Shown piece by piece: positions 5,785 to 27,023 of a stretch of DNA of 32,981 nucleotides. Source of the stretch: Gemmatimonadota bacterium (GTDB taxonomy: Bacteria > Gemmatimonadota > Gemmatimonadetes > Gemmatimonadales > GWC2-71-9); the NCBI GenBank assembly GCA_036679645.1, contig JAZDCY010000045.1, forward strand, positions 1-32,981, given 5' to 3'. The notes under the pieces were generated by a model that did no database searches, had not been told where the DNA came from, and saw only the letters and a list, made by a program, of their open reading frames with translations. The translations under genes and the position numbers were made by a program. How positions within the stretch are numbered: position 1 is the stretch's first letter; each line of letters opens with the position of its first letter.

Positions 5785-7038
5785 ATGCCATCGATTCAGC
5801 AGAAGATCTTCCGGACCGCCGCGCTCGCCCGTCACGCCAGTCCCGAGGGGCTCGACGCTCTGCTCGACATCACGACGGTGCCGGGATGGATCGGCCTGAT
5901 CGGCCTGGCGGCCGTGGTCGTCGGCGCGCTGGTCTGGGGGGTGCTGGGCCGGATTCCGGAGGTCATCGAAGGGCAGGGGATCATGGTGAGCGCTAGCGGC
6001 GTGTTCCGGGTGCAATCGCCAGCGGCGGGGCAGATCGACTCATTGCTGACCGACGTCGGCTCGACGGTGCACCGCGGCCAGACGATCGCCGTGCTGGCGC
6101 AACCCGAGCTGCGCAGGTCGATCGCGCAAATTGAAGAGTCGCTGGAGGAGCTGCGCGCCAATCGCGCCGCCACCGCGGCGTTGCTGGCGGCGAACCGGCA
6201 GATGGAGATGTCTTCGATCAGGCAGCAGCAACAACAGGCTGACGAGGCGATCAGTGCCGCGGACCAGCGGCTCGCCTACCTCGACGCGCGCATCGCGAAT
6301 GAGCGCCAGGCCGTCGAGAAAGGGCTGCTCACACCCGACGCGTTGCAAAGCACGGTGGCGCAGCGCGCCGAGACGCAGCTCCAGAGGCTCACCATGATCG
6401 CGCGCAAGCAGGAGCTCGGTGCGAACGCGGTGCAGGGCCAGGTCTCGTCGCGGCAGCGTCTCTTCGAGCTCGACCAGCAGATTCTGCAGACCGAGCATCA
6501 GCTGGCGCGCGACAGCGCCCGCCTCGCGGAGTTTTCCAACGTCACGAGCCCCTACGATGGTCTCGTGGTCGAGCGCCTGGCCGATGTGGGTCAGGCGGTC
6601 ACCGCGCGCACGCCGCTGATCACGGTCGTCCCGAGCGGTGGGACGCAGGTCTTGATGTTCATTCCGCTGGAGGGCAAGCGCATCCACGAGGGGATGCGCG
6701 CGCAGATGGTGCCCGGGGGCGTCCGGCCGGAGGAAACCGGCTACTTTCTCGGCGAGGTGCGCTCCGTTTCGGCCACTCCGCTCAGCGGCAGCGGTCTCGA
6801 CCGCTATCTGAAGAACGAGGTGCTCGTCCAACAGTTCACGAGCCAGGGCGGCGCGTACCTCGTCGAGGTCGACTTGGAGTACGACACGACGACCGTGAGC
6901 GGATTCAAGTGGACGTCGCGCGCCGGCGCCGCGCTCAGCTTCGGCAGCGGGACGCTGGTCACCGGAAGGATCATCGTCGAACAGACCCGGCCGGTAGCCC
7001 TCATCATGCCCGCCATTCGCCGCTGGCTACGTGGCTGA
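5785..7038 (+). CDS. NHLM bacteriocin system secretion protein (HlyD-type, TIGR03794-like)
   Basis: IFRTAALARHASPEGLDALL N-terminus, one TM helix, coiled coil, SGFKWTS motif. Confidence 0.9.
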   Translation: MPSIQQKIFRTAALARHASPEGLDALLDITTVPGWIGLIGLAAVVVGALVWGVLGRIPEVIEGQGIMVSASGVFRVQSPAAGQIDSLLTDVGSTVHRGQTIAVLAQPELRRSIAQIEESLEELRANRAATAALLAANRQMEMSSIRQQQQQADEAISAADQRLAYLDARIANERQAVEKGLLTPDALQSTVAQRAETQLQRLTMIARKQELGANAVQGQVSSRQRLFELDQQILQTEHQLARDSARLAEFSNVTSPYDGLVVERLADVGQAVTARTPLITVVPSGGTQVLMFIPLEGKRIHEGMRAQMVPGGVRPEETGYFLGEVRSVSATPLSGSGLDRYLKNEVLVQQFTSQGGAYLVEVDLEYDTTTVSGFKWTSRAGAALSFGSGTLVTGRIIVEQTRPVALIMPAIRRWLRG

Positions 7039-9205: not shown

Positions 9206-12186
9206 TGCGCCACACCCGCACGTTCGCGCGGTTCTCTACCGCGGTCGCGGTGCCGAGCCTGGAGGAATCGTCGGCGGCGGTACTGCGGGCCGAGCCGTAC
9301 CCCGACGCCTTTCCACTGACTGCCAACAGGCCGCTGCGCCTGGACGATCCCGCCCAGCTCTGGATAGTAGTGAGCGGCGAGGTCGATCTCTTTCATGTCC
9401 TCGGCAGCGGCGACACCTACCTGGCGCACCGCCGCTACGTCGGGACGCTGTCGGCGGGCGAGGTAGTGGCGGGTGCCCGTCCCGTGCCCGAGACCGGCGA
9501 CGGCGTGCTGATTGCGGTCGGCTTCGGCGGCGCCCGGCTCCACGCGGTTCCCCGCGCCGCGATCGACGAGGCGGCTGGCGACGGCCGGATCGCGCGTGCC
9601 CTGGCGAACGGTCTGGCGGAGACGATGGGCCGGGCGATGTACCGCTCGAGCCGCTCGTCGGCGCGCCCGGTGGATCTCAGCGAGCGGCGCCTCTCGCTGG
9701 ACGCCGGCACGGCCATCACCGCGTTGGCCGACGTGATGTGGTTCCAGCTCGATGACGGTGAGCTGGCCCTGGGCGGTGACGTCCCTGTCGCCCCCTCGCC
9801 GCTCTACCTACCGCTGGCGCGCGGCATGTGGTTCACGGCGGGAAGCGACGGCACGGCGCTGGTGGTGGTCGACACGTTCACCGCCTTCGCCGAACGGTCG
9901 ATCGGCGCTGCGCTCGTGCGGGCGTGGGGCATCTTCATCGCGTGGCTCGCGGCGCAGGCGGATAAGGACGACGCGGCCGAACGCGCCCGGCTCGAGCGGC
10001 GGGTTGAGGGCGAGCGCGCGAAGCATGCGAGCGCGCTGGCGAGTCTCGCGGGCTTGTTGCAGGGGCGCGGCGGCGCCCAGCCGGCCGAGCCGCAGGGCGA
10101 TCCCCTGCTCGACGCCTGTGGGATGATCGGCACGGCGTGCGGGATTGCCTTTCGGGCGCCGCCGGTGGCCAACGGCCGTCCCCCGGCGGCCGGTGACGCC
10201 GCCGACCCGCACCGGGATCTGGTGATGCGGATCTGCGCCGCGTCGCGGGTGCGCTATCGCCGGGTCACGCTGCGCGACGGATGGTGGGAATCCGACGCGG
10301 GGCCGATCCTCGGGTTCCGCGCGCGCGACTTTGCGCCGGTGGCACTGTTGTCCTCCCCCGACGGCGGGTACCTCCTGCACGACCCGGCGTCGGGGGAACG
10401 CGTGCCGGTAACCCCCGACGTCGCCGCCGGGCTCAGCAGGCAGGGTTACACCTTCTACGTGACGGCGCCGCCGGGCGCGCTCAATGCGCGCATCCTCGGC
10501 CGCCTGCTCGGGCGCGAGGTGTGGCCGGACGTGCGGCGCGTCCTGGGTTTCGTTGCGGCCGGTGCGGCGCTGGGCCTCGGCCTGCCCGTAGTCACGGGGT
10601 TGATGTTCAACCGCGTCATCCCCAGTGCCTCGATGGCCAACGCTGTGACCCTCGTCGCGGCGCTGCTGGCCCTCGTGGTGGCAACGGCCGCGGTCGACAT
10701 CGCGCGCGCCTTCGCGCTCATCCGGGTGGAGACCCGCACTAACGGCCTTCTGCAAGCGGCGGTCGTCGACCGCCTGCTCGCCCTGCCGCCTCAGTTCTTC
10801 CGCGCGTACTCGGTGGGCGACCTCGCGCTGCGCGCCGCGGCGGTCAACGCCGCGCGGCAGGTCCTCACCTCGCTGGCGCTGACGTCGCTGTTCGGCGGCG
10901 CCCTGGTCATCACCAGCGTGTCGCTGATGGCATGGTACAGTCTCAAGCTCGCGCTCGCGGCGTGCGGCATCCTGGCCGGCAGCGCCCTGGTGACGACTCT
11001 GGTCGGACTCTACGCCCTGCCCCACGAACGCCGCCGCCAGATGCTGCACGGCTCCATCAGCACGCTCGTGTTCGAAATGCTGAGCGGCGTCGCCAAGCTG
11101 CACGTGGCCGCGGCCGAGCGCCGCATGTTCGCGCTCTGGGGCGCGCAGTTTCGAGCGCAAAAGGTCGCGGCGTTTCGCGCCGGCGCGGCGGCCGCGGCGC
11201 TCGCCTCGTTCAACGCCCTGCTGCCGATCTTCGCCGCCGGCATCGTGTTCGTGGTCGCGGCTCGAGTGTTCGCGGCGGCCGGCGGCCTTACCACCGGCGA
11301 CTTCATCGCCTTCCTCACGGCCTTCGCGTCGGCGCTCGCCGCCGGTATCGGCGTGAGCACGACGATCGTGTCCCTGCTGAACGTGATACCCCTCGTCGAG
11401 CGGGCCGCGCCGATACTGTCGACCGCGCCGGAGGTGGATGACGCCAGACCCGACATCGGCACGATCAGCGGCCGCATCGAGATGTCCCACCTGACCTTCG
11501 GCTACACCGCCGGCACTGCCCCAGTGCTCGACGACGTGTCGTTCGAGACCCGGCCGGGCGAGTTCGTGGCGGTCGTGGGACCGTCCGGCGGCGGCAAGTC
11601 GACCATGCTGCGGCTATTGCTCGGCTTCGAGAAGCCCGACCGCGGCGCCGTCTACTTCGACGGGTACGATCTTGCGAGCGTCGACGTCGCGTCGGTGCGG
11701 CGCCAATGCTCCGTGGTCTTGCAGCACAGCAAGCTGCTCGCGGGCGACCTGTTCACCAACATCGTGGGCGCGTCGCCGCTCACCCTCGACGACGCCTGGC
11801 GCGCCGCCGACCTCGCCGGACTCGCCGACGACATCAGCGCGATGCCGATGGGGATGTACACCGTGATCAGCGAAGGGGGATCGACGCTGTCCGGCGGCCA
11901 GCGGCAGCGCCTGCTCATCGCGCGCGCGCTGGTGCGCCGGCCGCGTATCGTGTTCTTCGACGAGGCGACGAGCGCGCTCGACAACCGTTCCCAGGACATC
12001 GTCACCCGGAGTCTCGAAAGGATGCAGGCGACCCGCATCGTGATCGCGCACCGCCTCACGACCGTCCAGCGCGCCGACCGTATCCTCGTGGTCGCGAAAG
12101 GACGCATCGTCCAGCAGGGACGGTACGACGACCTCATCACCACCGACGGCCTGTTCAAGGATCTCGCCCAGCGGCAGCTCGTGTAG
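9205..12186 (+). CDS. NHLM ABC transporter ATP-binding/permease (TIGR03797-like)
   Basis: ATG overlaps the upstream TGA. N-terminal LWIVVSGEVDLF, RYRRVTLRDGWWESDAGPILG. GPSGGGKST, LSGGQRQR, FDEATSALD. Confidence 0.93.
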   Translation: MRHTRTFARFSTAVAVPSLEESSAAVLRAEPYPDAFPLTANRPLRLDDPAQLWIVVSGEVDLFHVLGSGDTYLAHRRYVGTLSAGEVVAGARPVPETGDGVLIAVGFGGARLHAVPRAAIDEAAGDGRIARALANGLAETMGRAMYRSSRSSARPVDLSERRLSLDAGTAITALADVMWFQLDDGELALGGDVPVAPSPLYLPLARGMWFTAGSDGTALVVVDTFTAFAERSIGAALVRAWGIFIAWLAAQADKDDAAERARLERRVEGERAKHASALASLAGLLQGRGGAQPAEPQGDPLLDACGMIGTACGIAFRAPPVANGRPPAAGDAADPHRDLVMRICAASRVRYRRVTLRDGWWESDAGPILGFRARDFAPVALLSSPDGGYLLHDPASGERVPVTPDVAAGLSRQGYTFYVTAPPGALNARILGRLLGREVWPDVRRVLGFVAAGAALGLGLPVVTGLMFNRVIPSASMANAVTLVAALLALVVATAAVDIARAFALIRVETRTNGLLQAAVVDRLLALPPQFFRAYSVGDLALRAAAVNAARQVLTSLALTSLFGGALVITSVSLMAWYSLKLALAACGILAGSALVTTLVGLYALPHERRRQMLHGSISTLVFEMLSGVAKLHVAAAERRMFALWGAQFRAQKVAAFRAGAAAAALASFNALLPIFAAGIVFVVAARVFAAAGGLTTGDFIAFLTAFASALAAGIGVSTTIVSLLNVIPLVERAAPILSTAPEVDDARPDIGTISGRIEMSHLTFGYTAGTAPVLDDVSFETRPGEFVAVVGPSGGGKSTMLRLLLGFEKPDRGAVYFDGYDLASVDVASVRRQCSVVLQHSKLLAGDLFTNIVGASPLTLDDAWRAADLAGLADDISAMPMGMYTVISEGGSTLSGGQRQRLLIARALVRRPRIVFFDEATSALDNRSQDIVTRSLERMQATRIVIAHRLTTVQRADRILVVAKGRIVQQGRYDDLITTDGLFKDLAQRQLV

Positions 12187-12210
12187 GGGCAGTCCGCGGC
12201 AGGTCGTCGC

Positions 12211-13623
12211 ATGCTCGGGAGACCGCTCATGTTACTCGCGGCTGGATTCTTCCTCCTTTGTCGTGCGCTTTCCGCGCAGGCCCCCGGCGAAGTGGGGCCG
12301 ACGAGTGCCGATACCGTCGTCTTGGCCCTCGACGACGTGCTGCGCACGGCACTGGCGCAGAACCTCCGGCTCCGCGCCGCGTCGGCGGAGACCCGGGGCG
12401 CGGCAACCTTCCGAACCACGGCGTGGTCGCGATTCGACCCAGCAGTGAACGTCGGAGGCGAGTACAACGGGAGTGGCGTCGGCGTCCAGCTCGTCGGTGA
12501 GCTGCCGACGGGCGCCACGTACCTCCTCGGCTCGGTGGCGCCGTCGACCCTCCCCGGCGATCCCGTCTTCGCCGACGCGATCGTCGCGAGAATCGATCAG
12601 CCCGTGTTGCGCGGGCTGGGGCTCTACAGCGCGCGTAACGCCATTCGGGCGGCGGACGAGGGGGTGGAAGCGTCACGTGCCCGCCTGAGCCGCACGCGTG
12701 ACGAGGTGGCGGCCGTCGTCCGGCTGGCCTACGCGATCCTGGTGGAGCGGCACCGACAGGAGGCCACCGCCGAGCGCTCGGTGCGGCGCGCGCTGGAGCT
12801 GCTCGATGCCTACACGTCGCTCCGGGCCATCGAGAGGATCACCGAGGTGGACCTCATCACCGCGAAGCTGGGCGTAGCGTCGCGCCAGGCCACGCTGCTC
12901 CAGGTGCGTCGCGAGCGCCGGGCCGCCGAGGATGCGCTCCTGTTCGCGGTGTACGGCGCCGGAGCGCGCGCCGTGCTCGCCCGTGCAGGCGACGCCGTGT
13001 GGATCCCGCGGGACACGGTGGTCGACGCCCCGTACGTTCCCTCGATGGAGGACGCCACCGCACGCGCCCTCGCGGCGCGTCCCGATCTGGAGGCCGCGCG
13101 CCACCACGTGGCCCAGGCGCGGTACCGTTCGCAGCAGGCACGCAACGCGGCGCTTCCCACGCTCAACCTATCGGCGTCTTTCAGCAGCACCCGCAGCGAC
13201 ACCCTGCTGGGACCCGGCGTGGCGTTCGACGCGCGCGATCAGGGGTGGCGTTTCGGCGTGGTGCTGTCGCGCCCCTTGTGGAACTCGGGCGCCACTGCCC
13301 AGCGCGACCGGGCCACGGCCGCCGCCGATCAGACGGAGGCGCAGCTCATCGAGGCGGAGAACGTCGTGCGCCGGGAAGTGCGGGCCGCAGTCCGCGACAT
13401 CGAACTGGCGCGCGAGCAGGTGACCATCGCCGCGGACGCCTCGCGCCTGGCCCGCCAACAGTACGAGATGGAGCGCGAACGCCTGACGCTCGGGCTCACC
13501 GACATCTTCCGCGTACTCCAGTACGAGGAACAGGTGGGGACCGTGGAGCGGGCGGAGGCGGAGGCATGGCGGGCGTACGCGACGGCCGTTGTGCAGTACC
13601 GGTTGGCGATGGGGGAGGGCTAG
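12211..13623 (+). CDS. TolC-family outer membrane efflux protein
   Basis: Signal peptide; LDDVLRTALAQN, ALAARPDL, ALPTLNLS, ERERLTLG; last gene of the type I secretion operon. Confidence 0.85.
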   Translation: MLGRPLMLLAAGFFLLCRALSAQAPGEVGPTSADTVVLALDDVLRTALAQNLRLRAASAETRGAATFRTTAWSRFDPAVNVGGEYNGSGVGVQLVGELPTGATYLLGSVAPSTLPGDPVFADAIVARIDQPVLRGLGLYSARNAIRAADEGVEASRARLSRTRDEVAAVVRLAYAILVERHRQEATAERSVRRALELLDAYTSLRAIERITEVDLITAKLGVASRQATLLQVRRERRAAEDALLFAVYGAGARAVLARAGDAVWIPRDTVVDAPYVPSMEDATARALAARPDLEAARHHVAQARYRSQQARNAALPTLNLSASFSSTRSDTLLGPGVAFDARDQGWRFGVVLSRPLWNSGATAQRDRATAAADQTEAQLIEAENVVRREVRAAVRDIELAREQVTIAADASRLARQQYEMERERLTLGLTDIFRVLQYEEQVGTVERAEAEAWRAYATAVVQYRLAMGEG

Positions 13624-14223: not shown

Positions 14224-16128
14224 TCAGCTGCGGTGCTCTTCCGTCGCCAGGGCGCGAGCGATGTAGTCCGGCGGCACGGTCGTACGCGGCACGGCATGCG
14301 CGAACCACTCGCGCACATCGAGGCCCAGCCCATCCCCTTCCTGAAACCGGTACGTAGCATCTCGCAAGCCCTTCCCAAGAGCGTCGTGATCGGTGCCCGT
14401 CGGGTCGTGGAACGGGAGGCTGAACTCCGTGAAGACGTGGTCGCCCTGCAGCACACCGGTGAGCTGGATACCGTACTCCTCGGGGTTTTGCCCGACCGGG
14501 CTGTGTCGCGTGGTGACGAAGCGGTGCCAGTTTCCCGACTGAAGACATCCGGCTGCGAAGAGCTGTCGCACGTACTCGAGGCTGTCGATCGTCTCCTGAA
14601 GGGTTTCGGTCGGGAAGCCGTACATGAGGTACGCGTGGACGACGATTCCGTGCTCGCTGAAGTGCCGGGCGACCCGCGCGACCTGGGTGACGGAAACGCC
14701 TTTCTTCATCTTCTCCAGGAGCCGGTCGGATGCTACCTCGAGACCGCCGCTGACCAGGACGCATCCGGCGCGTGCCATGAGTTCGGTCAGCTCGCGCGTG
14801 AACGACTTCTCGAAGCGGATGTTCCCCCACCACGAAATCGAGAGATCCCGTTCGAGCAGGCGCGCGGACAGCATCCGTAGCAGGGCGGGGGGCGCCGCCT
14901 CGTCCACCCAATGAAATCCCGAGAGACCCGTCTCCGCGCGTAGCTGTTCGATGTGCTCGATGAGGCGGTCCGCCGTCTGCGGCTCGTAGCGCCGGATGTA
15001 ATCGAGCGTGGTGTCGCAGAACGAGCACTTGCGCCAGTAACACCCGTGCGCAAGCGTGAGCTTGTTCCATCGTTTCGACCAGATCCGGTGTGCCGGCGTC
15101 GCCGATGTGAGAACCGAGATGTATCGCTCGATGGGCAGACCGTCGTACACCGGCGTGTTCGCTTCGGCAAACGGGACATCCTGTTCGTTCCTGGAGGAAT
15201 GGTAGCTCACCTTACCGTCTACGCGCCGGAAGGTGCGGAAGAGACCCTCCGGGCCACGCTCGTTTCGCAGGTATTCGAGCAGGCACGAGAGGGGGCGCTC
15301 ACCGTCGTCCAGCGTGACGAAATCGAAATAGTCGAACAAGCGGGGGTCGGAGATCGCGCGAAGGTAGGTGTTGACGTACCCACCGCCGAGGGCGACGTGC
15401 ACGTCGGGTCGTTCACGCTTGATCACCTCGGCAATGCGGAAGGCACCGGCCACGTTACCGGGGAAGGGTGCGGACAGGCCAACCACGTCGGGCTCGTGCG
15501 TCGCGAGACCGTCGAGCGTGATCTCCCGGATGAGCTGGTTGGTTGGGGTCTCTCTCTGTTCCTCCAGAAAGCGGTGGACGGCATCGAACGCGGTCGCCGT
15601 GCCGACGTGGTCCGCGAACGAGTAGAGGGCGAACCCGGGATCGACCAGTGCGATGACGTCCGTGATGTCGAGCAGGTAGTAGCTCGCCGCCAGTTGCGCA
15701 CGCTCACCGTCTTCGAGCGACGCGACGTTGTGCGGCATCCCGGGGATGGGACAATGGTCGTCAAACAGCTGTCGCAGGCGTGCGCCTTCGGGCAGGTATC
15801 CGCGTTCGTTGAGGTGAACGCCCACCGCGGGGTCTTTGGTCTGGAGGTAGGACATGACCGGCTCGACGGTATCCAGATACCGGTCGAGATGGGTGAGGAA
15901 GTGCGTTCGATTCTGGAGGTCTCGGGGCCCGACCGGTTGGCATTGCCCGACCGCGTGGCCGACCCGTTGGAGTCCGCTCCGCGACAGCAGCCGGTGCGCC
16001 AACTCGAGCGACCAGTCGGCCTGATGCGCGTCGACGCCGATCGAGCGGAGATGGCCCGTGAGCGCGGCCGTTGACGGATACGGAGTGTTCAGGTCCGCCA
16101 TCGGAGGGATCAACAGCAGCACGCGCAT
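14224..16128 (-). CDS. Cobalamin-binding domain radical SAM protein
   Basis: PDVVGLSAPF...VALGGGYVN B12-binding region, TLDDGERPL, CX4CX2C motif GCYWRKCSFC, GGLEVASDRLL, HAYLMYGFPTET. Confidence 0.9.
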   Translation of the reverse strand: MRVLLLIPPMADLNTPYPSTAALTGHLRSIGVDAHQADWSLELAHRLLSRSGLQRVGHAVGQCQPVGPRDLQNRTHFLTHLDRYLDTVEPVMSYLQTKDPAVGVHLNERGYLPEGARLRQLFDDHCPIPGMPHNVASLEDGERAQLAASYYLLDITDVIALVDPGFALYSFADHVGTATAFDAVHRFLEEQRETPTNQLIREITLDGLATHEPDVVGLSAPFPGNVAGAFRIAEVIKRERPDVHVALGGGYVNTYLRAISDPRLFDYFDFVTLDDGERPLSCLLEYLRNERGPEGLFRTFRRVDGKVSYHSSRNEQDVPFAEANTPVYDGLPIERYISVLTSATPAHRIWSKRWNKLTLAHGCYWRKCSFCDTTLDYIRRYEPQTADRLIEHIEQLRAETGLSGFHWVDEAAPPALLRMLSARLLERDLSISWWGNIRFEKSFTRELTELMARAGCVLVSGGLEVASDRLLEKMKKGVSVTQVARVARHFSEHGIVVHAYLMYGFPTETLQETIDSLEYVRQLFAAGCLQSGNWHRFVTTRHSPVGQNPEEYGIQLTGVLQGDHVFTEFSLPFHDPTGTDHDALGKGLRDATYRFQEGDGLGLDVREWFAHAVPRTTVPPDYIARALATEEHRS

Positions 16129-17211: not shown

Positions 17212-18456
17212 ATGGGAGTAGAACTTCGTCCGCTCGGCGTCCGCTGCAACATCCACTGCCAGTACTGCTACCAGAATCCGCAGCGGGACGCGGGTAACCT
17301 CGCCGATTCCTACGATATCGACCGCATGCAGGCCGCAATCGAAGCGGACGGGTCGCACTTCACGCTCTTTGGTGGTGAGGCGTTGCTCGTTCCCGAGGCG
17401 GATCTCGAGCGCTTGTGGGCGTGGGGACTCGAGCGGTATGGCTACAACTCGGTCCAAACGAACGGGACGCTGATTTCCGACCGGCACATCGAGCTGTTCA
17501 AGAAGTACAAGGTGCACGTCGGGATCTCCGTCGATGGTCCAGGGGACCTCAACGACGGGCGCTGGGCCGGTACGTTGGAGCGGACGCGCGAGCTGTCGGC
17601 GCGAACCCACGAAGCCATCGAACGGCTCTGCAGCGAGGGCATCCCCCCTGCCCTCATCGTGACGCTCCACCGAAACAACGGGACGGCAGACAAGCTCCCG
17701 CAGATGCACGACTGGTTCCGGTACCTCGAGACGCTGGGCATCTCGTCGGCGAGGATTCACATCCTCGAGGTCGACAACGAGTGGGTGCGGAGCAAGTACG
17801 CGCTCACGATCGAGGAAAACCTCACGGCGTTCATGAGCTTTGCCGATCTCGAGCACGAACTCGAGACGCTCAAGCTCGATCTCTTCCACGACATGCGGAA
17901 TCTGCTGTTGGGCAACGATGGCCAGACGACCTGTGTGTGGAACGCGTGCGATCCGTACACCACCCGAGCCGTTCAGGGTGTCGAGGGGGACGGGCAGCGC
18001 AGCAATTGCGGCCGCACCAACAAGGACGGGATCGATTTTACCAAGGCGAATACCGAAGGGTTCGAGCGATACATCGCGTTGTATCACACCCCGCAGGAAG
18101 ACGGTGGGTGTAATGGGTGTCGCTTCTTCCTGATGTGTAAGGGACAGTGCCCGGGGACGGCCATCGACGGCGACTGGCGCAACCGCACCGAGCACTGTGA
18201 AGTCTGGAAGGGCCTCTACCGGCACGTCGAAGGGACGTTGCTCGATCAGGGGCAGCGGCCGCTGTCCGTCATGCCGGAGCGGAAGCTCGTGGAGCAGTTC
18301 TTCCTCGACACGTGGGCCGGAGGGTCGAACACTTCTATCGAGCAGGCGGTCAAGCGTCTCAACGAACGCGGCACGGCCGCCGCAGGCGCAGTGCACCAGG
18401 GCGTGCGGCACGGGGACTCGAACCACGGCGACCACACCGATCATGCCGCCAACTGA
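17212..18456 (+). CDS. Radical SAM/SPASM peptide maturase with C-terminal HxD tail
   Basis: CNIHCQYC, FGGEALL, QTNGTL, GISVDGP. SPASM-like Cys set TTCVWNAC...NCG...CNGCRFFLMCKGQCP...HC. Tail HGDSNHGDHTDH. Confidence 0.92.
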   Translation: MGVELRPLGVRCNIHCQYCYQNPQRDAGNLADSYDIDRMQAAIEADGSHFTLFGGEALLVPEADLERLWAWGLERYGYNSVQTNGTLISDRHIELFKKYKVHVGISVDGPGDLNDGRWAGTLERTRELSARTHEAIERLCSEGIPPALIVTLHRNNGTADKLPQMHDWFRYLETLGISSARIHILEVDNEWVRSKYALTIEENLTAFMSFADLEHELETLKLDLFHDMRNLLLGNDGQTTCVWNACDPYTTRAVQGVEGDGQRSNCGRTNKDGIDFTKANTEGFERYIALYHTPQEDGGCNGCRFFLMCKGQCPGTAIDGDWRNRTEHCEVWKGLYRHVEGTLLDQGQRPLSVMPERKLVEQFFLDTWAGGSNTSIEQAVKRLNERGTAAAGAVHQGVRHGDSNHGDHTDHAAN

Positions 18457-19948
18457 CCGCCTGGATTTCGTCCTGCACGATTTCACCCGGCTGAGCTGGG
18501 TAAGCGACGCGGCGCGAGACCTCTGGGGTCCTCGCCTGCACCGTGTGACCGAGGCCTGGTTCGAGATCGAATGGCGCGCGGTCCTCGCGGGCCTGCGCCG
18601 GTGTGGCGTCACGGTCACCACGCCGGAAGGACTCATCGAGCGCGCCGCCAAATGGGTCGGGCACGGGCTGAACGCGCTGCCCGTGGAGCTCCACGGCGCG
18701 CGCGACAGCTATGCCAGTACGGGCGAGAAAGCCCGCCTCGGCGAGCCGTTCGTGTTCCGCATCGCGGTCGGCATCCCCGAAGACGTGGCGGAATTCAAGC
18801 AGGTTTGGGACGCGGCGGACAATCGCGGCATCGGGGGGTTCCTCGGATATCCCGAGTGCTGCCTGGACTTTTTCGAGGAGCATTGGGTCGACGGCCAGAT
18901 GATCGATACGACGTGGCCGATGGCGGTCGCGAGCAGCACGTCGCCAAACGGCACGCGGGACCTCGAGATCACCGGACCGCCCGAAGCCAACATTCTGTGG
19001 CGCTGGATGGGCGCGCGCGCGGTGCCGCACCTCCCCTGCCGCAGCGACTGCGAGGCGACGGTCGAGTTCGGCCGCGCGCTGATCGACGTCGGGCGCGGGG
19101 CCGGGTTCGACGAAGAGATGGACTGGTTACTCGAGATCCTCTCGTGGCCGGTCGAGTGGTCGGCGCTCCATGGCATCGCGGAAATCAAGACGCCCATTCT
19201 CAAGGTCGTCTCCCGCGCGGACGCGACGCGGTCCAAGTACACGGTTCGGCGACCCGGAACGGCGTACCCCGAGGCCGGAGCGCAGGGGCTCAAGTTCCCG
19301 TATCAGATGCCGCGCAAGACGATCACGGAATCGCGCGGCTACAAGCGGGGTCTCGACAACCCGATCGAGGCCGCACGCGCGCGTCCCGGTTGGTACGCGA
19401 GCGACAACGGGTTCGCCTCGATCGCAGCGATGGACCAGGCGCACACGCCGATCATCGGAGTGGCCGATGCGACGCTCGATGGCGAGGCCGCCAGTGTCCT
19501 TGACCTCGGGTGCGGAAACGGCGCCCTGCTCGAAGGCCTTCGCGACGCCAATCCCAAGGTCGTCCCGTACGGCGTGGAGATCGATGCGGAGCGCCTGGAG
19601 CACGCCCGGACACTGTTCCCCGATCACGTCGAGAACTTCACGGTCGGGGACATGTTCAGCGAAGAGATCTGGCAAGCCGGCCGTCGCTACGCGCTGGTCC
19701 TGCTCATGCCCGGTCGGTTGTTGGAAGCCGGGCCCGAACGCGCCGCCTGGCTGCGCGAGCAGATCAAAGCGCATTGCGACCATGTACTCGTGTATGCCTA
19801 CGGAGACTGGCTCACCAAGTACCGCGACCTGCAGGGGTTGGCCCGACGCGCGGGCCTGTCGCTGCTCAGTTCGGGCTCGGGCGCAACGGTCAGTCTCGCA
19901 AAATACCGGAAAGCTGGCGAGCAGCTTTCCGAGGCTGTGACATCATAA
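18443..19948 (+). CDS. Cys-motif domain (DUF483-like) fused to a class I SAM-dependent methyltransferase
   Basis: FLGYPECC and PHLPCRSDC motifs; C-terminal VLDLGCGNG, YGVEID, VGDMF. ATG at 18443 overlaps the rSAM 3' end. Confidence 0.7.
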   Translation: MPPTDRLDFVLHDFTRLSWVSDAARDLWGPRLHRVTEAWFEIEWRAVLAGLRRCGVTVTTPEGLIERAAKWVGHGLNALPVELHGARDSYASTGEKARLGEPFVFRIAVGIPEDVAEFKQVWDAADNRGIGGFLGYPECCLDFFEEHWVDGQMIDTTWPMAVASSTSPNGTRDLEITGPPEANILWRWMGARAVPHLPCRSDCEATVEFGRALIDVGRGAGFDEEMDWLLEILSWPVEWSALHGIAEIKTPILKVVSRADATRSKYTVRRPGTAYPEAGAQGLKFPYQMPRKTITESRGYKRGLDNPIEAARARPGWYASDNGFASIAAMDQAHTPIIGVADATLDGEAASVLDLGCGNGALLEGLRDANPKVVPYGVEIDAERLEHARTLFPDHVENFTVGDMFSEEIWQAGRRYALVLLMPGRLLEAGPERAAWLREQIKAHCDHVLVYAYGDWLTKYRDLQGLARRAGLSLLSSGSGATVSLAKYRKAGEQLSEAVTS

Positions 19949-19988: not shown

Positions 19989-20699
19989 ATGAGTTCTGAC
20001 GAACGTGGCAAGAAGCCGGATCCGGAGGACCATGTCAAGAAAGACCCGGAAGGATCGAGTACAACCCCGGACGGTGACAAGCCAGGGGGCAAGAGCGATA
20101 TCAGCCGTCGAGGACTGATCCGGGCCGGCTGGAGCGTCCCCATCATCATGGGTGTGTCCCTCCCCAAGAACGCGTTCGCGCAGTACGCGCACAGCGACAC
20201 CGCCCCGCACGCCGACACCCACAACGACCACGGTGATCACAGCGACCACGGTGATGCGCCAGGTCAGATACACGAGGATGCCGGTCACAACGATCACGGT
20301 GACACGTTCATTCCCCACGCGGACATTCCGCACCAGGACTTCATCGAAATCCCGCACGCAGACATCGGAACGATCCCGCACGTCGATACCGGACTGCACG
20401 TCGATGTCCTGCCGCACATCGATATCCCGTCGTTGCACGGCGATCTGGGGCACGTGGATGTGACGCCTCACGCCGACCTCGCGCTCCACATCGACGTCAT
20501 TCCGCACACCGATGTCCCGCATGCGGACGCGTCCTTCCACGGCGATGTTGGTGTCCCGGGTATCCACGGCGACATCATCCCGCACGTCGACGTGGGTCAC
20601 GTGGACATCGTCCCCCACTTCGACGTCGGGCACTTCGATGTGGTCCCGCACTTTGATGTGGTCCCGCACGGCGACATCGGCGGTGGGTTCGGGTTCTAG
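19989..20699 (+). CDS. His-Xaa-Asp repeat protein, putative RiPP precursor with Tat-like leader
   Basis: GGGAGG SD before ATG ATG (19986/19989). Leader SRRGLIRAGWSVPIIMGVSLPKNAFA. 172-aa core from 20181 with 29 HxD motifs. Sits among peptide-modifying enzyme genes. Confidence 0.85.
   Translation: MSSDERGKKPDPEDHVKKDPEGSSTTPDGDKPGGKSDISRRGLIRAGWSVPIIMGVSLPKNAFAQYAHSDTAPHADTHNDHGDHSDHGDAPGQIHEDAGHNDHGDTFIPHADIPHQDFIEIPHADIGTIPHVDTGLHVDVLPHIDIPSLHGDLGHVDVTPHADLALHIDVIPHTDVPHADASFHGDVGVPGIHGDIIPHVDVGHVDIVPHFDVGHFDVVPHFDVVPHGDIGGGFGF
20220..20303 (+). repeat. 18-bp coding repeats (H-N/S-D-H-G-D)
   Basis: CACAACGACCACGGTGAT (20220), CACAGCGACCACGGTGAT (20238), CACAACGATCACGGTGAC (20286). Confidence 0.85.
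20631..20669 (+). repeat. 18-bp tandem coding repeat (HFDVVP x2)
   Basis: CACTTCGATGTGGTCCCG CACTTTGATGTGGTCCCG CAC, with one synonymous mismatch. Confidence 0.85.
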
Positions 20700-20759: not shown

Positions 20760-20785
20760 CTATATGGATGTAGGAGGTGGCTACG

Positions 20786-21925
20786 GTGAAAGTGGAAAGT
20801 GTCACGGACATCGACTGGAAGCGCACGCCTGAGCCCCAGGCGGATCAGTACGACACGGACGTAGCGGAACGTTTGGCCAAGGGGCGCGGCCCCGACGTGT
20901 CTGGACTCGAGAACGCCCCACGCATCTTCGATGGCGCCGTACCGATCGAGGAGACCACTGCGGAGTCGGTGCAGTTCCCCGAGTCGTGCGTGCCCGCACC
21001 GGCCGATCACCCGAACATTCAGCAGGCCGTCGAGTTGATCCGGCTCTGGCCGACCGTATTCACGCAGTGCCAGCGTCTGATCCGCAAAGCGAACTTCTTC
21101 GTCGACACGGCGGTGCCGGAGAAGGGGTTCATCGGCTCGCTGTCGCGGGCCGGAGCCGACGGGTTCGGGACCGTCGCCGTGACCGTGAACGATCCCGTGG
21201 CGCTGGCCGAGTCCATCGTGCACGAGATGGGGCACAACAAGTTGCGCGCGCTCGGGGTCGATTTTACCAGTGCCAAACGGATCGTCACGAATACCGAGGG
21301 CGATCAGTACAAGAGCCCCGTACGATACGACTGCCTGAGGCCTATGACGGCCATTCTGCATGCGATGTGGTCGTACACGTACTTGACGGCGCTCGATGTC
21401 GAGATCCTGCGCGCCTCGTCCGACCATGCGGTGAAACATCGTGTCGCGCAGCAATCACTGGCCCTGAACCTGCCCAGGTTGGACTTCGGGCTCGACGTGC
21501 TGCAGTCGCATGTGCAGACGGACGAGGCAGGGAAGCAGTTCTTCTTCGGGTTCTTCCAGTGGCTCGATCGGGTTCGTGCGGCCGGCTATGACATTCTCGA
21601 GCGGGTCGGCATCAAGCCCCTTCCGTTCGTCCACCCCGATGACGCGCAGGGCAAGACCAATGGACCCCGGCCGGCGCGGGTCAACGGCCTCCATCAGTAT
21701 CGGCTTGGCGAAGAGACGCTGATCTACGTCCCCGACGCCGAGAAGGCCCACGCGCTCAACCCGTCGGCCGTCGCCATTTTCGATCTGTGCGACGGCTCGC
21801 GTACGGTTCAGGACATCTGCCGCGAGTTGGGCCCGCTCGTGGGCAAAACGGCAGGCGAACTCACGCCGGACGTGGAGCAGGGCGTGACACAGCTCCGCGA
21901 GCTCGGCCTCCTCCAGCCGGACTGA
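20786..21925 (+). CDS. aKG-HExxH peptide beta-hydroxylase-like protein fused to a C-terminal PqqD/RRE domain
   Basis: AESIVHEMGHNKL...YKSPVRYDCLRPMTAILHA; C-terminal AHALNPSAVAIFDLCDGSRTVQDI...LRELGLL. AGGAGG lies 8 nt before GTG 20786 (alternative start 20777). Confidence 0.88.
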   Translation: MKVESVTDIDWKRTPEPQADQYDTDVAERLAKGRGPDVSGLENAPRIFDGAVPIEETTAESVQFPESCVPAPADHPNIQQAVELIRLWPTVFTQCQRLIRKANFFVDTAVPEKGFIGSLSRAGADGFGTVAVTVNDPVALAESIVHEMGHNKLRALGVDFTSAKRIVTNTEGDQYKSPVRYDCLRPMTAILHAMWSYTYLTALDVEILRASSDHAVKHRVAQQSLALNLPRLDFGLDVLQSHVQTDEAGKQFFFGFFQWLDRVRAAGYDILERVGIKPLPFVHPDDAQGKTNGPRPARVNGLHQYRLGEETLIYVPDAEKAHALNPSAVAIFDLCDGSRTVQDICRELGPLVGKTAGELTPDVEQGVTQLRELGLLQPD

Positions 21926-21931
21926 AGAGTC

Positions 21932-22783
21932 GTGCGGTCTGCGTCGCCTGCCACGACGATGGCCGTCGCGTTTCAAGGCTGCGCTGTAGCCGTCCGGTCG
22001 ACGGCAGTCGAGGTGATTGACGAGTTCCGGCGCGTCTGCGGTACCATGGTCGTCGTCCCGGACGCGGTCACTCCGGTTGGGCACCTGCAGGTCGATCGTA
22101 CCGGCGAGGTCTATGTCGTCAGCGGGGACACCGACGTGGCGCTCGGTGACGGGTCCCTGGCAGACGTCATGCGCTGCCTGCGCTATTCGGTCATCCAGCT
22201 CTTCATTCAAGCCTTTCCCGGCCTGTACTGGTTCCACGCGGGCGCTGTCGCCTGGGGGGGAAACGCGGTGCTGATTCCGGGCCACCGTGGGCGCGGCAAG
22301 AGCACGCTGGTGACCGGCCTTGGCGATCACGGGTGGGACTACCTGTCGGACGACGTGGTCCCGCTCGACCCGCAAACACACACGCTGCTGCCCCTCCCAT
22401 TCGCTCCTGCGAAGCGCGAGTACCCCGGGCGTCGGATGCGATCGGTGTGGCTCCGGACAACTCCCAAGACGGACGTGACCGTGCCTGGCGAGCGCGTGCG
22501 CAGCGGCCCGACGCCCGTTGCGGCATTCGTGATCCCCCGATACCGGCAGGACGCTCACACCAAGGTCGCCGCGTTCTCGCCAGCCCAGGCCGCCGCGTTG
22601 CTGCTGGAGAACTGCTGGAACTTCGGCGCGCCCCGGGCCAATGCCGTGCGTTACGTCTGCGCACTCGCGGGCCGGCTCCCGGCGGTCCGTGCCGTCTTCT
22701 CGGACGGGGCCGATGCGGCGCGCGTCCTCGCTGGCACGCGCGAAGAGTGGATGATGGACCGCGCCGCGGCGCGCGAGGCCTGA
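21932..22783 (+). CDS. HPr kinase-like (HprK-related) kinase
   Basis: FHAGAV, P-loop GHRGRGKSTL, YLSDDVVPL. Confidence 0.85.
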   Translation: MRSASPATTMAVAFQGCAVAVRSTAVEVIDEFRRVCGTMVVVPDAVTPVGHLQVDRTGEVYVVSGDTDVALGDGSLADVMRCLRYSVIQLFIQAFPGLYWFHAGAVAWGGNAVLIPGHRGRGKSTLVTGLGDHGWDYLSDDVVPLDPQTHTLLPLPFAPAKREYPGRRMRSVWLRTTPKTDVTVPGERVRSGPTPVAAFVIPRYRQDAHTKVAAFSPAQAAALLLENCWNFGAPRANAVRYVCALAGRLPAVRAVFSDGADAARVLAGTREEWMMDRAAAREA

Positions 22784-22788
22784 GCGTC

Positions 22789-23994
22789 GTGGATATACAG
22801 CAGTTCAAGGTCCTGGGCAGGGAAGTCGACGAGGCATGGCGTGCGCGGCAATACGACGAGTTTCAGTTTTCCGAGGTTGCGCTCGAGGTGCTCGGCAACG
22901 CCTCACTATCGACATCCGTCGATCTGCAGTCGATTCTCGAGCGGTGTTTGGATCCCGCGGCGAACGAGTTTCGGATAAGGGGATCGTTTGGCGATCTCCC
23001 GTTGATCGTCTACGAAACACCGCAGTTCTACGTTCAGGTGCTGATGTGGACCACCGCCACCACCAACATTCATCAGCACGGCTTCTCCGGCGCGTTCCGC
23101 GTGTTTGCCGGATCGAGCATCCACAGCCAGTACGAGTTCCACACCCGCGAGCGCATCAACTCGCGTATCTCGGTTGGGGATGCCGAGCTCAAGACCATCG
23201 AGCTGCTCCGTCAGGGACAGACCCACGAGATCATCTCGGGCAGCGGCCTGACGCATGCGCTGTTCCATCTCGATCTGCCGAGCGTCTCTGTAGTGGTTCG
23301 GACGCACGCGGAACCGTGGTCGTCACCGCAGATGACCCTTTACCCGCCGCACCTCGCGGTCGATACCGTGACGTTGGGTTCCGATCCGGTGTGCAACGCC
23401 ATCGCCAAATGCCTGCGAGTCATGCGACACGCCCAGGACCCCCGGATCGCCGACTCCATCATCTCCCTGGTACCACGCCTCGACTTCGCACGCATCTACC
23501 AGGTCTTTCAGCGCCATCGACAGCAGCTGGGTAGTGAGGAAGGGCGCTTCCTAGATGCCGTCCGGGAGCGACATGGTCAGCTGACCGACCACATGCTCGA
23601 ATCGATGCAGTACGAGCGCCGACTCGAGAAGATCCGCGAGCTACGCGGGACGGTGCGAGATCTCGAGTTGCGGTTCTTTCTGGGTGTGCTGCTCAATGCG
23701 CCTAACCAGAAGCGCATCTACGAACTTGTGGCGGCCCAGTATCCCGAGGTGGATCCGGAGGACAAGGTGGTGGAATGGCTTACCGGTCTCCTGCGCACCG
23801 GAGAGTTCCCGGCCAAGGCGGGTGTGTCTCTCCTGAGGCCCTTGTTGCGCGGCTCGAGCCTCGAAGAGACCGTCCGGGCCGTTGGGGACGCAATCGACGA
23901 TACGGAGGCCCAACCCCCAGCGGCTCTCGTGGCTACGATGTGTGAACAAATCAAGGGCGTTCCGGCCTTCGACCGACTGTGGATTCGGAACTGA
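22789..23994 (+). CDS. Cupin (cysteine dioxygenase-like HxH...H) domain protein
   Basis: VQVLMWTTATTNIHQHGFSGAFRVFAGSSIH...LTHALFHLD; helical C-terminal extension. Confidence 0.65.
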   Translation: MDIQQFKVLGREVDEAWRARQYDEFQFSEVALEVLGNASLSTSVDLQSILERCLDPAANEFRIRGSFGDLPLIVYETPQFYVQVLMWTTATTNIHQHGFSGAFRVFAGSSIHSQYEFHTRERINSRISVGDAELKTIELLRQGQTHEIISGSGLTHALFHLDLPSVSVVVRTHAEPWSSPQMTLYPPHLAVDTVTLGSDPVCNAIAKCLRVMRHAQDPRIADSIISLVPRLDFARIYQVFQRHRQQLGSEEGRFLDAVRERHGQLTDHMLESMQYERRLEKIRELRGTVRDLELRFFLGVLLNAPNQKRIYELVAAQYPEVDPEDKVVEWLTGLLRTGEFPAKAGVSLLRPLLRGSSLEETVRAVGDAIDDTEAQPPAALVATMCEQIKGVPAFDRLWIRN

Positions 23995-25868
23995 GGCCCG
24001 CGGGACAGGCGCACGTCCCGGCTGACACGCCTGTGGCGCTCGTGAACATGCCGTTTGCCACGATACGGCACCCGTCGATTCAGATCGGGTTGCTCCAGGC
24101 CCACGGGTGCCGCGCCGACATTCCGCTACGCAGCCTGTACGCCAACCTCGACTTCGCGGCACGCATCGGTTTTCAGCTCCACGAGGCGCTGGCGATTCAT
24201 CGCGGGGCCCTCATCGGAGAGTGGTTGTTCACGAAGGCTGCGTTTCCGGAGCATGAAGCCGCCGACGAGTTCCCTCGACGGTACGGGAACATCGTCGATG
24301 AGGTCGCCGATGTCGCCGGCGTGCCGCGCGCGGATGTGGTGGCCATCAGGGACGTCCACGCGCCCGCGTTCGTCGCCGAGATGGCCGACCGGCTCGTCGA
24401 AGCGGGCACACGGGTCGTGGGCTTCACGTCCACCTTCGAGCAGAACGTGGCCTCCCTCGCGCTGGCACGTGCGGTCAAGGAGCGCGATCCCGCCATCGCG
24501 ACGGTGTTCGGCGGGGCCAACTACGACGCCGACATGGGTCGCGCGTATCTCGACGCGTACCCCTGGATCGACATCGCGGTGGCCGGTGAGGCGGACGACA
24601 TCTTCGTCCCGCTGATCCAGGCCCTCCTGGACGGAGCCGCCATACCGGAACTCATCGGCGTCAACACACGGACCAGTAACGGCAACGGCACCCGGGGGAC
24701 GTACCGCGGGTCGATGGACGCGCTCCCCGTGCCAAACTACGACGACTACTTCGAGGCCATTCGGCGCAATGGTTTCCATCAAGAGGAGATCAAGTGGAGC
24801 CTCGCCCTACCGTTTGAATCGTCGCGTGGCTGTTGGTGGGGTGCCAAGCATCACTGCACCTTCTGCGGGTTGAACGGCATGGCGTGGCGGGCCAAGTCGG
24901 TGGAAACGGTGGTGTCGGACATCAGCACCTTGGCGACGAAGTATCATGTCAGTTCCTTCCTCGCCGTCGACAACATCATTGGTGTTGACATGCTGCGCGG
25001 CCTGGTGTCGCAGATGACCGAGGAGGAGTACGACTACGATTTCTTCTACGAGATCAAGGCGAACCTCACGAGGGCGCAGATCCGCGGCATGCGCGACGCC
25101 GGTATTCTCCGCGTCCAGCCGGGTATCGAGAGCCTGAGTTCGCCGGTCCTCTCCCTGATGCGGAAGGGCATCACGGGAATCCAGAACATCAACACGCTAC
25201 GCTGGTTGCGATTCTACGGCGTGCAGGCAATCTGGAATATCCTCTTCGGCTTCCCGGGCGAAGCACAGGAAGATTACGACCGCCAGCTCGAGGTGATCGA
25301 GCTGACCCCTCATCTCCGGCCCCCGAAAGGGGCCGGCCGCATCTGGCTGGAGCGGTTTGGGCCGTACTTCAAGGAGGCGGAGGCCTTTGGGTTCGACAAC
25401 CTGCGGCCCGACGAGTGCTACTCGTATATCTATCCCCCGCCGCTCTCGCTGCACGATGCCGCGTATTTCTTTCAGAGCGATCCCACGCAGACGCTCACCG
25501 ACGACGTGTACGCTCCCACGCAACGAGCCGTCGAGCGGTGGCAGGAGATGTGGCGGCAGCCCAAGCGTCCCTATCTCCTCGTCACCAAGACGCACCCTGG
25601 GATCAGGGTCATCGACGGGAGGAGCAACCAGCAAGACCCCACCACGCGGTTCTACAAGGAGCCGCTGTCGCACGTCTACCTGTATTGCAGCGATCGGCCG
25701 CGTGGCATGCGTTCGATTCTCGAGTTCGCTTCCGAGAAGCGGCTCGAGTCATCCGATATCGAGGGCGACGTGCAGGACGTGCTGCAGACGTGGGTGCGTG
25801 ATGGCGTGATGATAGAGGAGGATGGGCGATATCTGAGCCTGGCACTCCCGCGGATGCCGTGGCGTTAG
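23979..25868 (+). CDS. B12-dependent RiPP maturation radical SAM C-methyltransferase (TIGR03975-like)
   Basis: ALVNMPF, PSIQIGLL, VVGFTSTFEQN, FGGANY, CX7CX2C motif SRGCWWGAKHHCTFCGLN, QPGIESLS, WNILFGFPGE. Confidence 0.92.
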   Translation: MDSELRPAGQAHVPADTPVALVNMPFATIRHPSIQIGLLQAHGCRADIPLRSLYANLDFAARIGFQLHEALAIHRGALIGEWLFTKAAFPEHEAADEFPRRYGNIVDEVADVAGVPRADVVAIRDVHAPAFVAEMADRLVEAGTRVVGFTSTFEQNVASLALARAVKERDPAIATVFGGANYDADMGRAYLDAYPWIDIAVAGEADDIFVPLIQALLDGAAIPELIGVNTRTSNGNGTRGTYRGSMDALPVPNYDDYFEAIRRNGFHQEEIKWSLALPFESSRGCWWGAKHHCTFCGLNGMAWRAKSVETVVSDISTLATKYHVSSFLAVDNIIGVDMLRGLVSQMTEEEYDYDFFYEIKANLTRAQIRGMRDAGILRVQPGIESLSSPVLSLMRKGITGIQNINTLRWLRFYGVQAIWNILFGFPGEAQEDYDRQLEVIELTPHLRPPKGAGRIWLERFGPYFKEAEAFGFDNLRPDECYSYIYPPPLSLHDAAYFFQSDPTQTLTDDVYAPTQRAVERWQEMWRQPKRPYLLVTKTHPGIRVIDGRSNQQDPTTRFYKEPLSHVYLYCSDRPRGMRSILEFASEKRLESSDIEGDVQDVLQTWVRDGVMIEEDGRYLSLALPRMPWR

Positions 25869-25887: not shown

Positions 25888-26904
25888 TCAGAGCGCGAGG
25901 TAGCCTACGGTCGGGTGCGCCCGCAGCATGTATCGGAACGAGTCCGGGTACTCGGAGAGACCGAGGAGATGCTCGATGCGCGCGATGTGGGCCATGGTGT
26001 AGGTTGCGAATGCCGAGAGGCAGCGCAACTCCTCGAGTCCGAAACGGACACCGCGCGCGCGCTGGTATTCTTCGACAAAAGCCGCTGCTTCTTCCGGCGT
26101 GACCGTGCCGCGTGCCGCCCCCCGCGCAAAGCTCACCGCTGCCCCCCCGACCAGCCAGAGCTCGTCGATGATGCGGAGGCTGTCCCAATCGTATATGACC
26201 GAGACGGCGTTACCGCGGTATCGGAAGTGCTGGTCTGTCCAGTCGTTGTGTGCGAGGACCGCGGGGTACTTCGCGTGTTCATGCACGACCTCCTTGGCGG
26301 GTCGCGCGATGCGATCGATCCACTCGGCCTCCGATGCCCGGTTGCTCGCGTCCAGCACGTGATGGGGCGGCCAGAGGGTGTCCGGTGGTAGCCACGGCGA
26401 TGGAAGCCCCGGTGTGTCGCGTAGGGGCTCGGCGCGGTCGATCAGTTCGGCGAGGGTCGAGGCCATGACGGCACGGATGGCGGGGTCGTGGGGATCGCCT
26501 CGCTCCCCGTCGGCCACGAACGCATCGATCGTCATCCGGCCAACGGGGAGCTCGACCGGCGGGTGCACCACCGCAGGGCATGGAAACCCACGGGTCGCGA
26601 GCACGGCCTGCACGCTCGAGGTGGCGGTGAGGGACGCGAGCGGTGCGGTGGGATTGTGCACCTTGACGAAGATACGGCGGCCGTCCTCGAGGGTCAGGCT
26701 GATGGCCGCTCCGTCCGCGCACACGGCCGAGGGGCATCCGCTGACGGCCGCGCCGAGGCGATGGCGACAGAACCCATCGACGACTCGCGCGACCTGCTCG
26801 GCGCCCGCGCCGCGAAATAAGCCCCGTGGAATGTCCGCGCTCGGGGCGGTATCTATTGCGCGCGTGAGTTGCGCGGTAAGCTCGTCCATCCCGATAGGCG
26901 GCAT
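25888..26904 (-). CDS. APH/choline kinase-like phosphotransferase
   Basis: RIFVKVH, GFPCPAV, Brenner-type LAHNDW, VIYDWDS. Start 26904 or 26889. Confidence 0.8.
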   Translation of the reverse strand: MPPIGMDELTAQLTRAIDTAPSADIPRGLFRGAGAEQVARVVDGFCRHRLGAAVSGCPSAVCADGAAISLTLEDGRRIFVKVHNPTAPLASLTATSSVQAVLATRGFPCPAVVHPPVELPVGRMTIDAFVADGERGDPHDPAIRAVMASTLAELIDRAEPLRDTPGLPSPWLPPDTLWPPHHVLDASNRASEAEWIDRIARPAKEVVHEHAKYPAVLAHNDWTDQHFRYRGNAVSVIYDWDSLRIIDELWLVGGAAVSFARGAARGTVTPEEAAAFVEEYQRARGVRFGLEELRCLSAFATYTMAHIARIEHLLGLSEYPDSFRYMLRAHPTVGYLAL

Positions 26905-27023
26905 CTCGTTGGCGGTTAAGGTACGAACTCCAAACCTGTCGGACCAGCCCGGGCATGCCCGATACGCGAAGAGCAAACCGCGTCCCGCGCGCTGGCGCAC
27001 CATGGTCGTCACACGGTGAACCC

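Follow-up and report, generated by a model that had tools for sequence, protein, structure and literature searches.

The window (the whole stretch of 32,981 nucleotides that was analysed, from a Gemmatimonadota bacterium) carries a cassette formed, in this order, by a radical SAM gene, its partner, a repeat protein, an aKG-HExxH hydroxylase, an HprK-like gene, an ORF without family match and a B12 radical SAM methyltransferase. The first gene (17212-18456, plus strand) encodes a radical SAM/SPASM enzyme of 414 aa without N-terminal RRE, recognised by PF04055, its fold and its Cys motifs. The partner (18443-19948, plus strand) comprises a DUF483-like Cys/His domain of about 330 aa and a class I methyltransferase domain, and is fused to the radical SAM enzyme in many homologues. 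Its DUF483 matches are weak, being found in 75 of 113 aligned partners with a best E value of 6e-7, and the window partner stays below the cut-off (E 0.014); the fold search gave no clear match, the best being 2GUK (Z 8.9, rmsd 3.1, 104 aligned, model residues 33-153 only). The near-invariant partner residues C139, C140, C199, C203 and H243 could form a metal site. The third gene (19989-20699, plus strand) encodes the putative substrate, so assigned from its sequence, a protein of 236 aa with 29 HxD units at 20190-20675, all but one of its 30 His being in HxD register. Its leader is twin-arginine-like (SRRGLIR...AFAQ) as judged by eye and by regular expression, and no Pfam or NCBIfam family was matched in this protein.

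The hydroxylase (20777-21925, plus strand) is of the aKG-HExxH peptide beta-hydroxylase type (TIGR04267, 69.8 bits against a cut-off of 40), ends in a PqqD/RRE domain (PF05402) and is likely a tailoring enzyme. It is followed by the HprK-related kinase-like accessory gene (21932-22783, plus strand; TIGR04352, 72 bits, below the cut-off of 200) and, at the end of the cassette, by the B12-dependent radical SAM RiPP C-methyltransferase (23979-25868, plus strand; TIGR03975, 596 bits against 282). The latter is accessory and present in few related loci, with 5 distinct homologous ORFs in the window and 160 loci. Neither Pfam nor NCBIfam gave a family match for the ORFs at 22780-23994 (plus strand) and 25888-27012 (minus strand); by eye, the former has an HQH...H pattern which we take to suggest a cupin-type metal site, and the latter what are presumably phosphotransferase-like motifs. 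A complete NHLP-type export set was identified at 5785-13623 (plus strand), 3.6 kb upstream of the cassette, comprising TIGR03794, TIGR03796 (C39 peptidase) and TIGR03797, each above its cut-off, and an outer-membrane efflux protein; the leader of the HxD protein is Tat-like and not of the double-glycine type. A second B12-binding radical SAM gene (14224-16128, minus strand) is divergent from the cassette and scores under every cut-off.

In nearly all of 160 cellular and metagenomic loci, the partner either follows the enzyme or is fused to it, and the enzyme usually lies beside an HxD array, which sits on Tat-type proteins, on short peptides or on the ends of very large proteins. In viral contigs the array is found mostly on the gene directly upstream of the enzyme. 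A search of 60 related genomes at E 1e-60 did not find the enzyme, in keeping with a cassette that is patchy and mobile. One cassette with an HxD protein was identified in a genome labelled as a Nitrososphaeraceae archaeon (L033:7496-9236), and in another locus (L004:7400-9918) the radical SAM gene lies between two near-identical HxD substrates of lipoprotein type. The segment 17000-21000 of the window matches letter for letter a contig of one public run, possibly the window's own source; the run search listed no RNA data among public runs.

The radical SAM motif CX3CX2C of the enzyme corresponds to C12, C16 and C19, all invariant, with a PF04055 score of 57.8 bits against a cut-off of 29.5, and eight conserved Cys are located in the SPASM region (241, 246, 266, 300, 303, 309, 313 and 329). 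The best Foldseek matches of the enzyme model were 4K39 anSME (E 5e-14) and 9GM3 ChlB (E 8e-14), the identity with ChlB being 17-18%. Among the best 25 of its 51 NCBIfam matches the enzyme lies below each cut-off, with 71 bits against 425 for AmcB, 54 against 445 for YhhB, 53 against 310 for GrrM/OscB, 44 against 450 for XyeB and 33 against 370 for FxsB; the HxsB and HxsC families are absent from these best 25. Basic residues R25, R117, H183, R268, K271, R286 and R323 are near-invariant in 381 cores, and by this conservation could be candidates for binding substrate Asp carboxylates.

The C-terminus of the enzyme reads HQGVRHGDSNHGDHTDHAAN. The tail (18400-18453, plus strand, residues 397-414) lies 3' of the last predicted helix, in a low-confidence region, and is probably disordered: AlphaFold2 block pLDDT values for residues 401-414 are 54 and 44, against 91 for the overall enzyme model. 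The preliminary description had the enzyme ending in three HxD triplets, and three units were identified in register within 18409-18441 (plus strand) as HGD-SN-HGD-HTD: HGD (His400) at 18409-18417, HGD (His405) at 18424-18432 and HTD (His408) at 18433-18441, in agreement with the family consensus HGD-x(1-2)-HGD-HxD. Two other His, His395 (HQG, at 18394) and His411 (HAA), are out of register. At least three HxD in the last 30 residues were found in one of the 2,939 stop-to-stop ORFs of at least 300 aa in the genome, which is the radical SAM gene; random 30-mers with the composition of the enzyme reach this number in 14 of 200,000 cases and shuffles of its last 20 residues in 0.75%. The HxD tail is real and not a product of chance. 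Its motif ties the enzyme to the repeat protein as first described, the only dense HxD array of the genome lying two genes downstream. The end of the tail also overlaps the next gene as had been observed: with the partner starting at ATG 18443, a start inferred by homology, the last 14 nt are shared. The close resemblance claimed between tail and precursor holds for the HxD motif, common to both, but not beyond it, since the tail is no closer to its own precursor than to those of others (longest common stretch 4 aa or 10 nt, against non-cognate medians of 4 aa and 12 nt).

Tails were identified in 171 of 381 non-redundant homologues from bacteria and phages, down to 34% core identity. Among the best 120 homologues, 71 have at least two HxD after the SPASM domain, a proportion biased upward by a query that included the tail. 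With a tail-less query, the 80 GTDB loci comprise 15 with tail, 47 without, 17 fused to the partner and 1 cut, and the 80 metagenome loci comprise 22 with tail, 47 without, 3 fused, 5 cut and 3 unreadable. The same kind of query found the tail in 61 of 133 representatives of 50% clusters, after leaving out 17 of 150 with the SPASM end missing; at least one of the representatives (P0233) looks like a frameshift artefact. In viral contigs the tail is present in 35 of 43 distinct complete enzymes from a set of 74 loci once 20 distant matches, 7 loci cut or without the SPASM pattern and 4 duplicates were left out. Two cultured Thermus phages have tails, with 4 units in Cumys and 9 in phiLo. Tail length ranges from 2 to 24 units; P0135, P0142, P0164 and P0200 have tails of 16-24 HxD units and are in effect enzyme-substrate fusions. 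Another group of unusually long homologues (P0156, P0158, P0215, P0219, P0221, P0231 and P0258), most of them with two or three matched stretches, suggests insertions, for example inteins, or N-terminal fusions.

In an unrooted FastTree phylogeny of 381 core-only rows, the tail state changes at least 42 times, against a mean of 125 after shuffling, a pattern by which the tail is inferred to be inherited but unstable. The window enzyme is sister to nine enzymes which all lack the tail (support 96). Conservation among homologues had been proposed as a check, with a divided outcome: the HxD register is kept in many of them, but the nine nearest relatives and more than half of the family have no tail. 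As judged from this distribution, the tail is optional and dispensable for the system as a whole. Among the enzymes of the cluster it is almost restricted to one, being present in 35 of 149 radical SAM ORFs, 1 of 116 partners and none of 35 HExxH proteins. The sole partner-side tail is that of a 933-aa partner and methyltransferase protein ending in six HxD (L023:10915-13716, the same gene in L117). Tat-type substrates accompany 17 of 24 tail loci, 10 of 50 tail-less loci and none of 11 fused loci, with only one independent pair on well-supported branches; the methyltransferase is present on the partner in 20 of 23 tail loci against 29 of 69 tail-less ones, again with only one independent well-supported pair. 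Links of the tail with Tat-type substrates or with the methyltransferase cannot be separated from kinship.

Counted over 95 tails, HxD register holds for 327 of 331 His and for 327 of 335 Asp, and HGD-x(1-2)-HGD or HGDHxD is present in 151 of 171 tails, to 34% core identity. The H, G and D positions of 15 three-unit tails have 303 synonymous and 28 non-synonymous differences in 945 pairwise comparisons, which are between related sequences and non-independent; in the same tails the 12 residues upstream of the units are 14% identical. On these alignments, the tail is judged to be under protein-level constraint.

This bears on the reading of the tail as a neutral relic of a precursor-enzyme fusion, as had been suggested, or as a by-product that arises repeatedly by recombination with the repeat gene nearby. 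The frequent loss of the tail would suit such an origin, as would the DNA of the tails being slightly nearer to their own substrate (mean rank 0.75, p 0.0002, 24 loci), but the shared stretches are of only 8-13 nt and explicable by common codon usage, and the likeness at the protein level does not track the local substrate (mean rank 0.50). Gly occupies the middle position in 64% of the units in tails and in 17% of those in substrates of the same loci, with the higher share in the tail in 54 of 61 loci, and for this reason the tail is not considered a copy of the local substrate. Moreover, 21 of the 37 tails with HGDHxD adjoin substrates without it. With the synonymous excess and the same consensus recurring at 34-45% core identity, the suggestion of a neutral fusion relic is not sustained; a relic or recombination by-product is a very unlikely origin, already largely refuted by the constraint data.

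Even less credible, to the point of being negligible, is that the HxD units are a by-product of the overlap with the start of the partner or with a ribosome-binding site. Many tails do end across the start codon of the next gene, but they are also kept at distances of 200-1,800 nt from the partner start (L001, L004, L023, L081 and L151), and these five loci refute this explanation. The codon usage of the tail matches that of the enzyme core. Genes without a tail show the same coupling, and in 94 tail-less loci no hidden tail of at least two HxD exists in another frame. In L004 the tail overlaps the start of the second substrate copy and not that of the partner.

The partner gives rise to a different explanation, by which the DUF483-like protein would be the subunit that reads HxD and the tail would hold the enzyme to it, becoming redundant on gene fusion. 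The partner gene adjoins the enzyme in nearly all loci, and no HxD tail was seen in 39 partner-fused representatives or in 20 fused loci; the fused enzymes of L084 and L010 have no tail though their sisters have it. The absence of the tail in fused enzymes weakly supports a tethering role in this comparison of sequences. However, most fusions occur in lineages already without tail, a mostly tail-bearing sister being present for only 5 of 36 fused clades. The tail is also missing from many unfused enzymes, and its loss on fusion could simply follow from the deletion that joined the two genes. A tether of this type is regarded as unlikely.

Metal chaperones have His-rich tails, and the HxD tail could likewise be a metal-binding appendage, modified or not, which would serve the enzyme or its Cys/His-rich DUF483-like partner by holding or sensing a divalent metal. 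A floppy, His/Asp-only tail, 2 to 24 units long, would suit this role, as would its optional presence and the possible metal site of the partner. The strict i, i+2 register common to tails and substrates is less easily accommodated, and so are the substitutions. In substrate arrays, Tyr is enriched 9-fold and Phe 4-fold at position -2 of Asp residues without His there, and Asn 11-fold and Glu 2.6-fold at position +2 of His residues without Asp. The tails follow the same trend, with Tyr enriched 12-fold at -2 of orphan Asp (11 of 49) and Asn 13-fold at +2 of orphan His (6 of 26), where Glu was found once (1 of 26). The second His slot of HxD-H-x-D is occupied in the tails by 129 His, 9 Tyr, 1 Phe and 2 other residues, none of them Arg, Gln or Asn, and the 9 Tyr come from five enzymes that are 39-67% identical. 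The signal for Asn in place of Asp is weak at one slot of the tails (4 Asn, 5 Gly, 1 Glu). His to Tyr and Asp to Asn are single transitions, so part of the enrichment is mutational; His to Arg, the other transition, is missing from the second His slot, and a change to Phe takes two mutations. Thus His is replaced by Tyr or Phe and not by other ligands, and Asp only rarely by Glu, and neither these rules nor the register would be needed in a plain metal tail, which we regard as a rather improbable explanation. By analogy, the aromatic-x-Asx pattern fits what a three-residue cyclophane chemistry would allow and suits a plain metal-binding tail less well. Since tails and substrates both accept Tyr or Phe for His, the sequence pattern is best fitted by self-modification or substrate mimicry.

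A tail that is modified by its own enzyme could be a fused product precursor, as in borosins, cut off after self-modification to yield a small cross-linked peptide. Fused autocatalytic precursors exist: in the accessible part of PMC8429565, the borosin OphMA has the substrate sequence at the C-terminus of the enzyme and the dimer modifies it between subunits. The tail resembles this arrangement in being a substrate-type sequence fused to an enzyme C-terminus, and some tails reach 10 to 24 units. The differences are that the borosin enzyme is an alpha-N-methyltransferase and not a radical SAM/SPASM protein and that its fused tail is the product precursor (same part of PMC8429565), whereas here the tail is optional and a separate substrate is nearly always present. 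Of 14 cellular loci with a tail and good flanks, 13 have a separate HxD protein, as do, by the rule of the script, 34 of 35 viral tail loci, of which L208 looks spurious; phiLo has large HxD arrays at 5-10 kb from the enzyme, and the linker 5' of the units is unconserved, so that no cleavage site stands out. With a separate substrate almost always present, the tail would not be the product precursor of the pathway, and a peptide released from it is a very improbable product. The phiLo region (MH673673.1:141900-147200, L238) comprises about 5 kb of dense HxD coding on the strand opposite to the radical SAM gene.

The reading that we favour, with a probability of roughly 45%, is that the tail is a tethered, optimal copy of the substrate motif, engaged and probably cross-linked by the enzyme, and that its likeliest selected role would be to keep the site filled before substrate comes in. 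For peptide-modifying radical SAM enzymes in general, a leader usually guides the recognition of the substrate. The substrates of this family have no common leader, as they are Tat-type proteins, short peptides, ends of 1,000-residue proteins and phage virion proteins, and the machinery would therefore have to read the repeat itself. In the proposed mechanism, the floppy tail would be bound in the active site of the enzyme itself or of another enzyme copy, in cis or between subunits as in borosins, and cross-linked in the way expected for the repeats of the adjacent protein. By analogy with triceptide chemistry, the aromatic ring of His1 would be joined to the beta-carbon of Asp3, with a change of -2 Da per unit. 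Without substrate, the tethered optimal repeat would fill the site and act as a gate until displaced or cross-linked. The parts of this proposal differ in strength. Recognition of the tail as a substrate-type motif is probable, its covalent modification stands at even odds, and a regulatory gate as the role for which it was selected is possible though doubtful. Somewhat more doubtful, being the broadest version, is that a widespread bacterial and phage radical SAM family cross-links its own HGD units as an on-switch or gate before stapling exported and virion HxD proteins.

Besides the dispensability of the tail for the system, several results count against the tethered substrate. AlphaFold2 leaves the tail unordered, and the scores for named cyclophane-synthase families are far below their cut-offs. 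In 25 sister pairs, none of 229 core columns co-varied with the presence of the tail (best p 0.016, none surviving correction), as expected if there is no dedicated docking site. A complex prediction with enzyme core 1-384, partner 1-330 and SAM, in which the tail 385-414 was the scored chain, gave a score of 0.02 and a mark of 0.32 and decides neither way.

The favoured reading draws on systems already described. Cross-links from His1 to the beta-carbon of X3 are established for HtkB and HaaB (His-C2 to X3) in the accessible part of PMC11499958, and ChlH, an aKG-HExxH enzyme, hydroxylates His and Asp according to the accessible part of PMC12636437. The triceptide synthases HtkB, HaaB, YhhB and ChlB share with the window system the radical SAM/SPASM fold without N-terminal RRE, the aromatic-x-x motifs in a neighbour and the aKG-HExxH hydroxylase in the cluster (accessible part of PMC11499958); in the neighbouring precursor of the window, the triceptide-like aromatic-X2-X3 motifs are the 29 HxD, with Tyr and Phe swaps enriched in such arrays. 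The window system differs in scores of 33-71 bits against cut-offs of 310-450, in the dozens of motifs per substrate, in the DUF483-like partner and in the motif-bearing enzyme tail; such a tail is not described in that part of PMC11499958. For the exported repeat protein, the nearest functional analogue is judged to be the HXS antiphage system (HxsA-D), with a radical SAM-dependent maturation of an exported His-x-X repeat protein (accessible part of PMC13128918). HXS has HxS in a basic context, 5 repeats, a peptidoglycan-binding domain, two radical SAM enzymes and a change of +8 Da, whereas the window protein has acidic HxD, 29 repeats and no Pfam domain; no enzyme tail is described for HXS in the same part of PMC13128918.

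The module formed by enzyme and DUF483-like protein has been named before, as the 'rSAM module' of Thermus phages Cumys and phiMa, for which Kolesnik et al. suggested DNA modification (main text of PMC11437467). The passages found on the module mention neither HxD repeats nor the tail, and the word 'histidine' occurs 0 times in that main text. The Cumys module is alike in its enzyme (54.6% identity over 381 aa), its DUF483 partner, an adjacent protein with 54 HxD and a tail of 4 units; the Cumys and phiMa modules are phage-borne, whereas the window cassette is cellular and has a Tat-type substrate and extra tailoring genes. In the openly accessible main texts of the literature, no substrate-like tail on a radical SAM maturase and no HxD substrates were found. 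The tail is a real, conserved and optional feature of an uncharacterised enzyme family, with kin in cyclophane-type maturases and in enzyme-fused substrates.

The tail points to HGD-x(1-2)-HGD-HxD as the minimal preferred motif, and the enzyme's own tail offers a cheap test of the chemistry without the repeat protein, which is hard to express. Cumys and phiLo, both Thermus phages in culture, offer the same arrangement. Should the tail prove to be a portable modification tag, other proteins could be equipped with it. If the broadest version of the proposal, the more doubtful one, is true, this would be a family of self-modifying and self-regulating radical SAM maturases.
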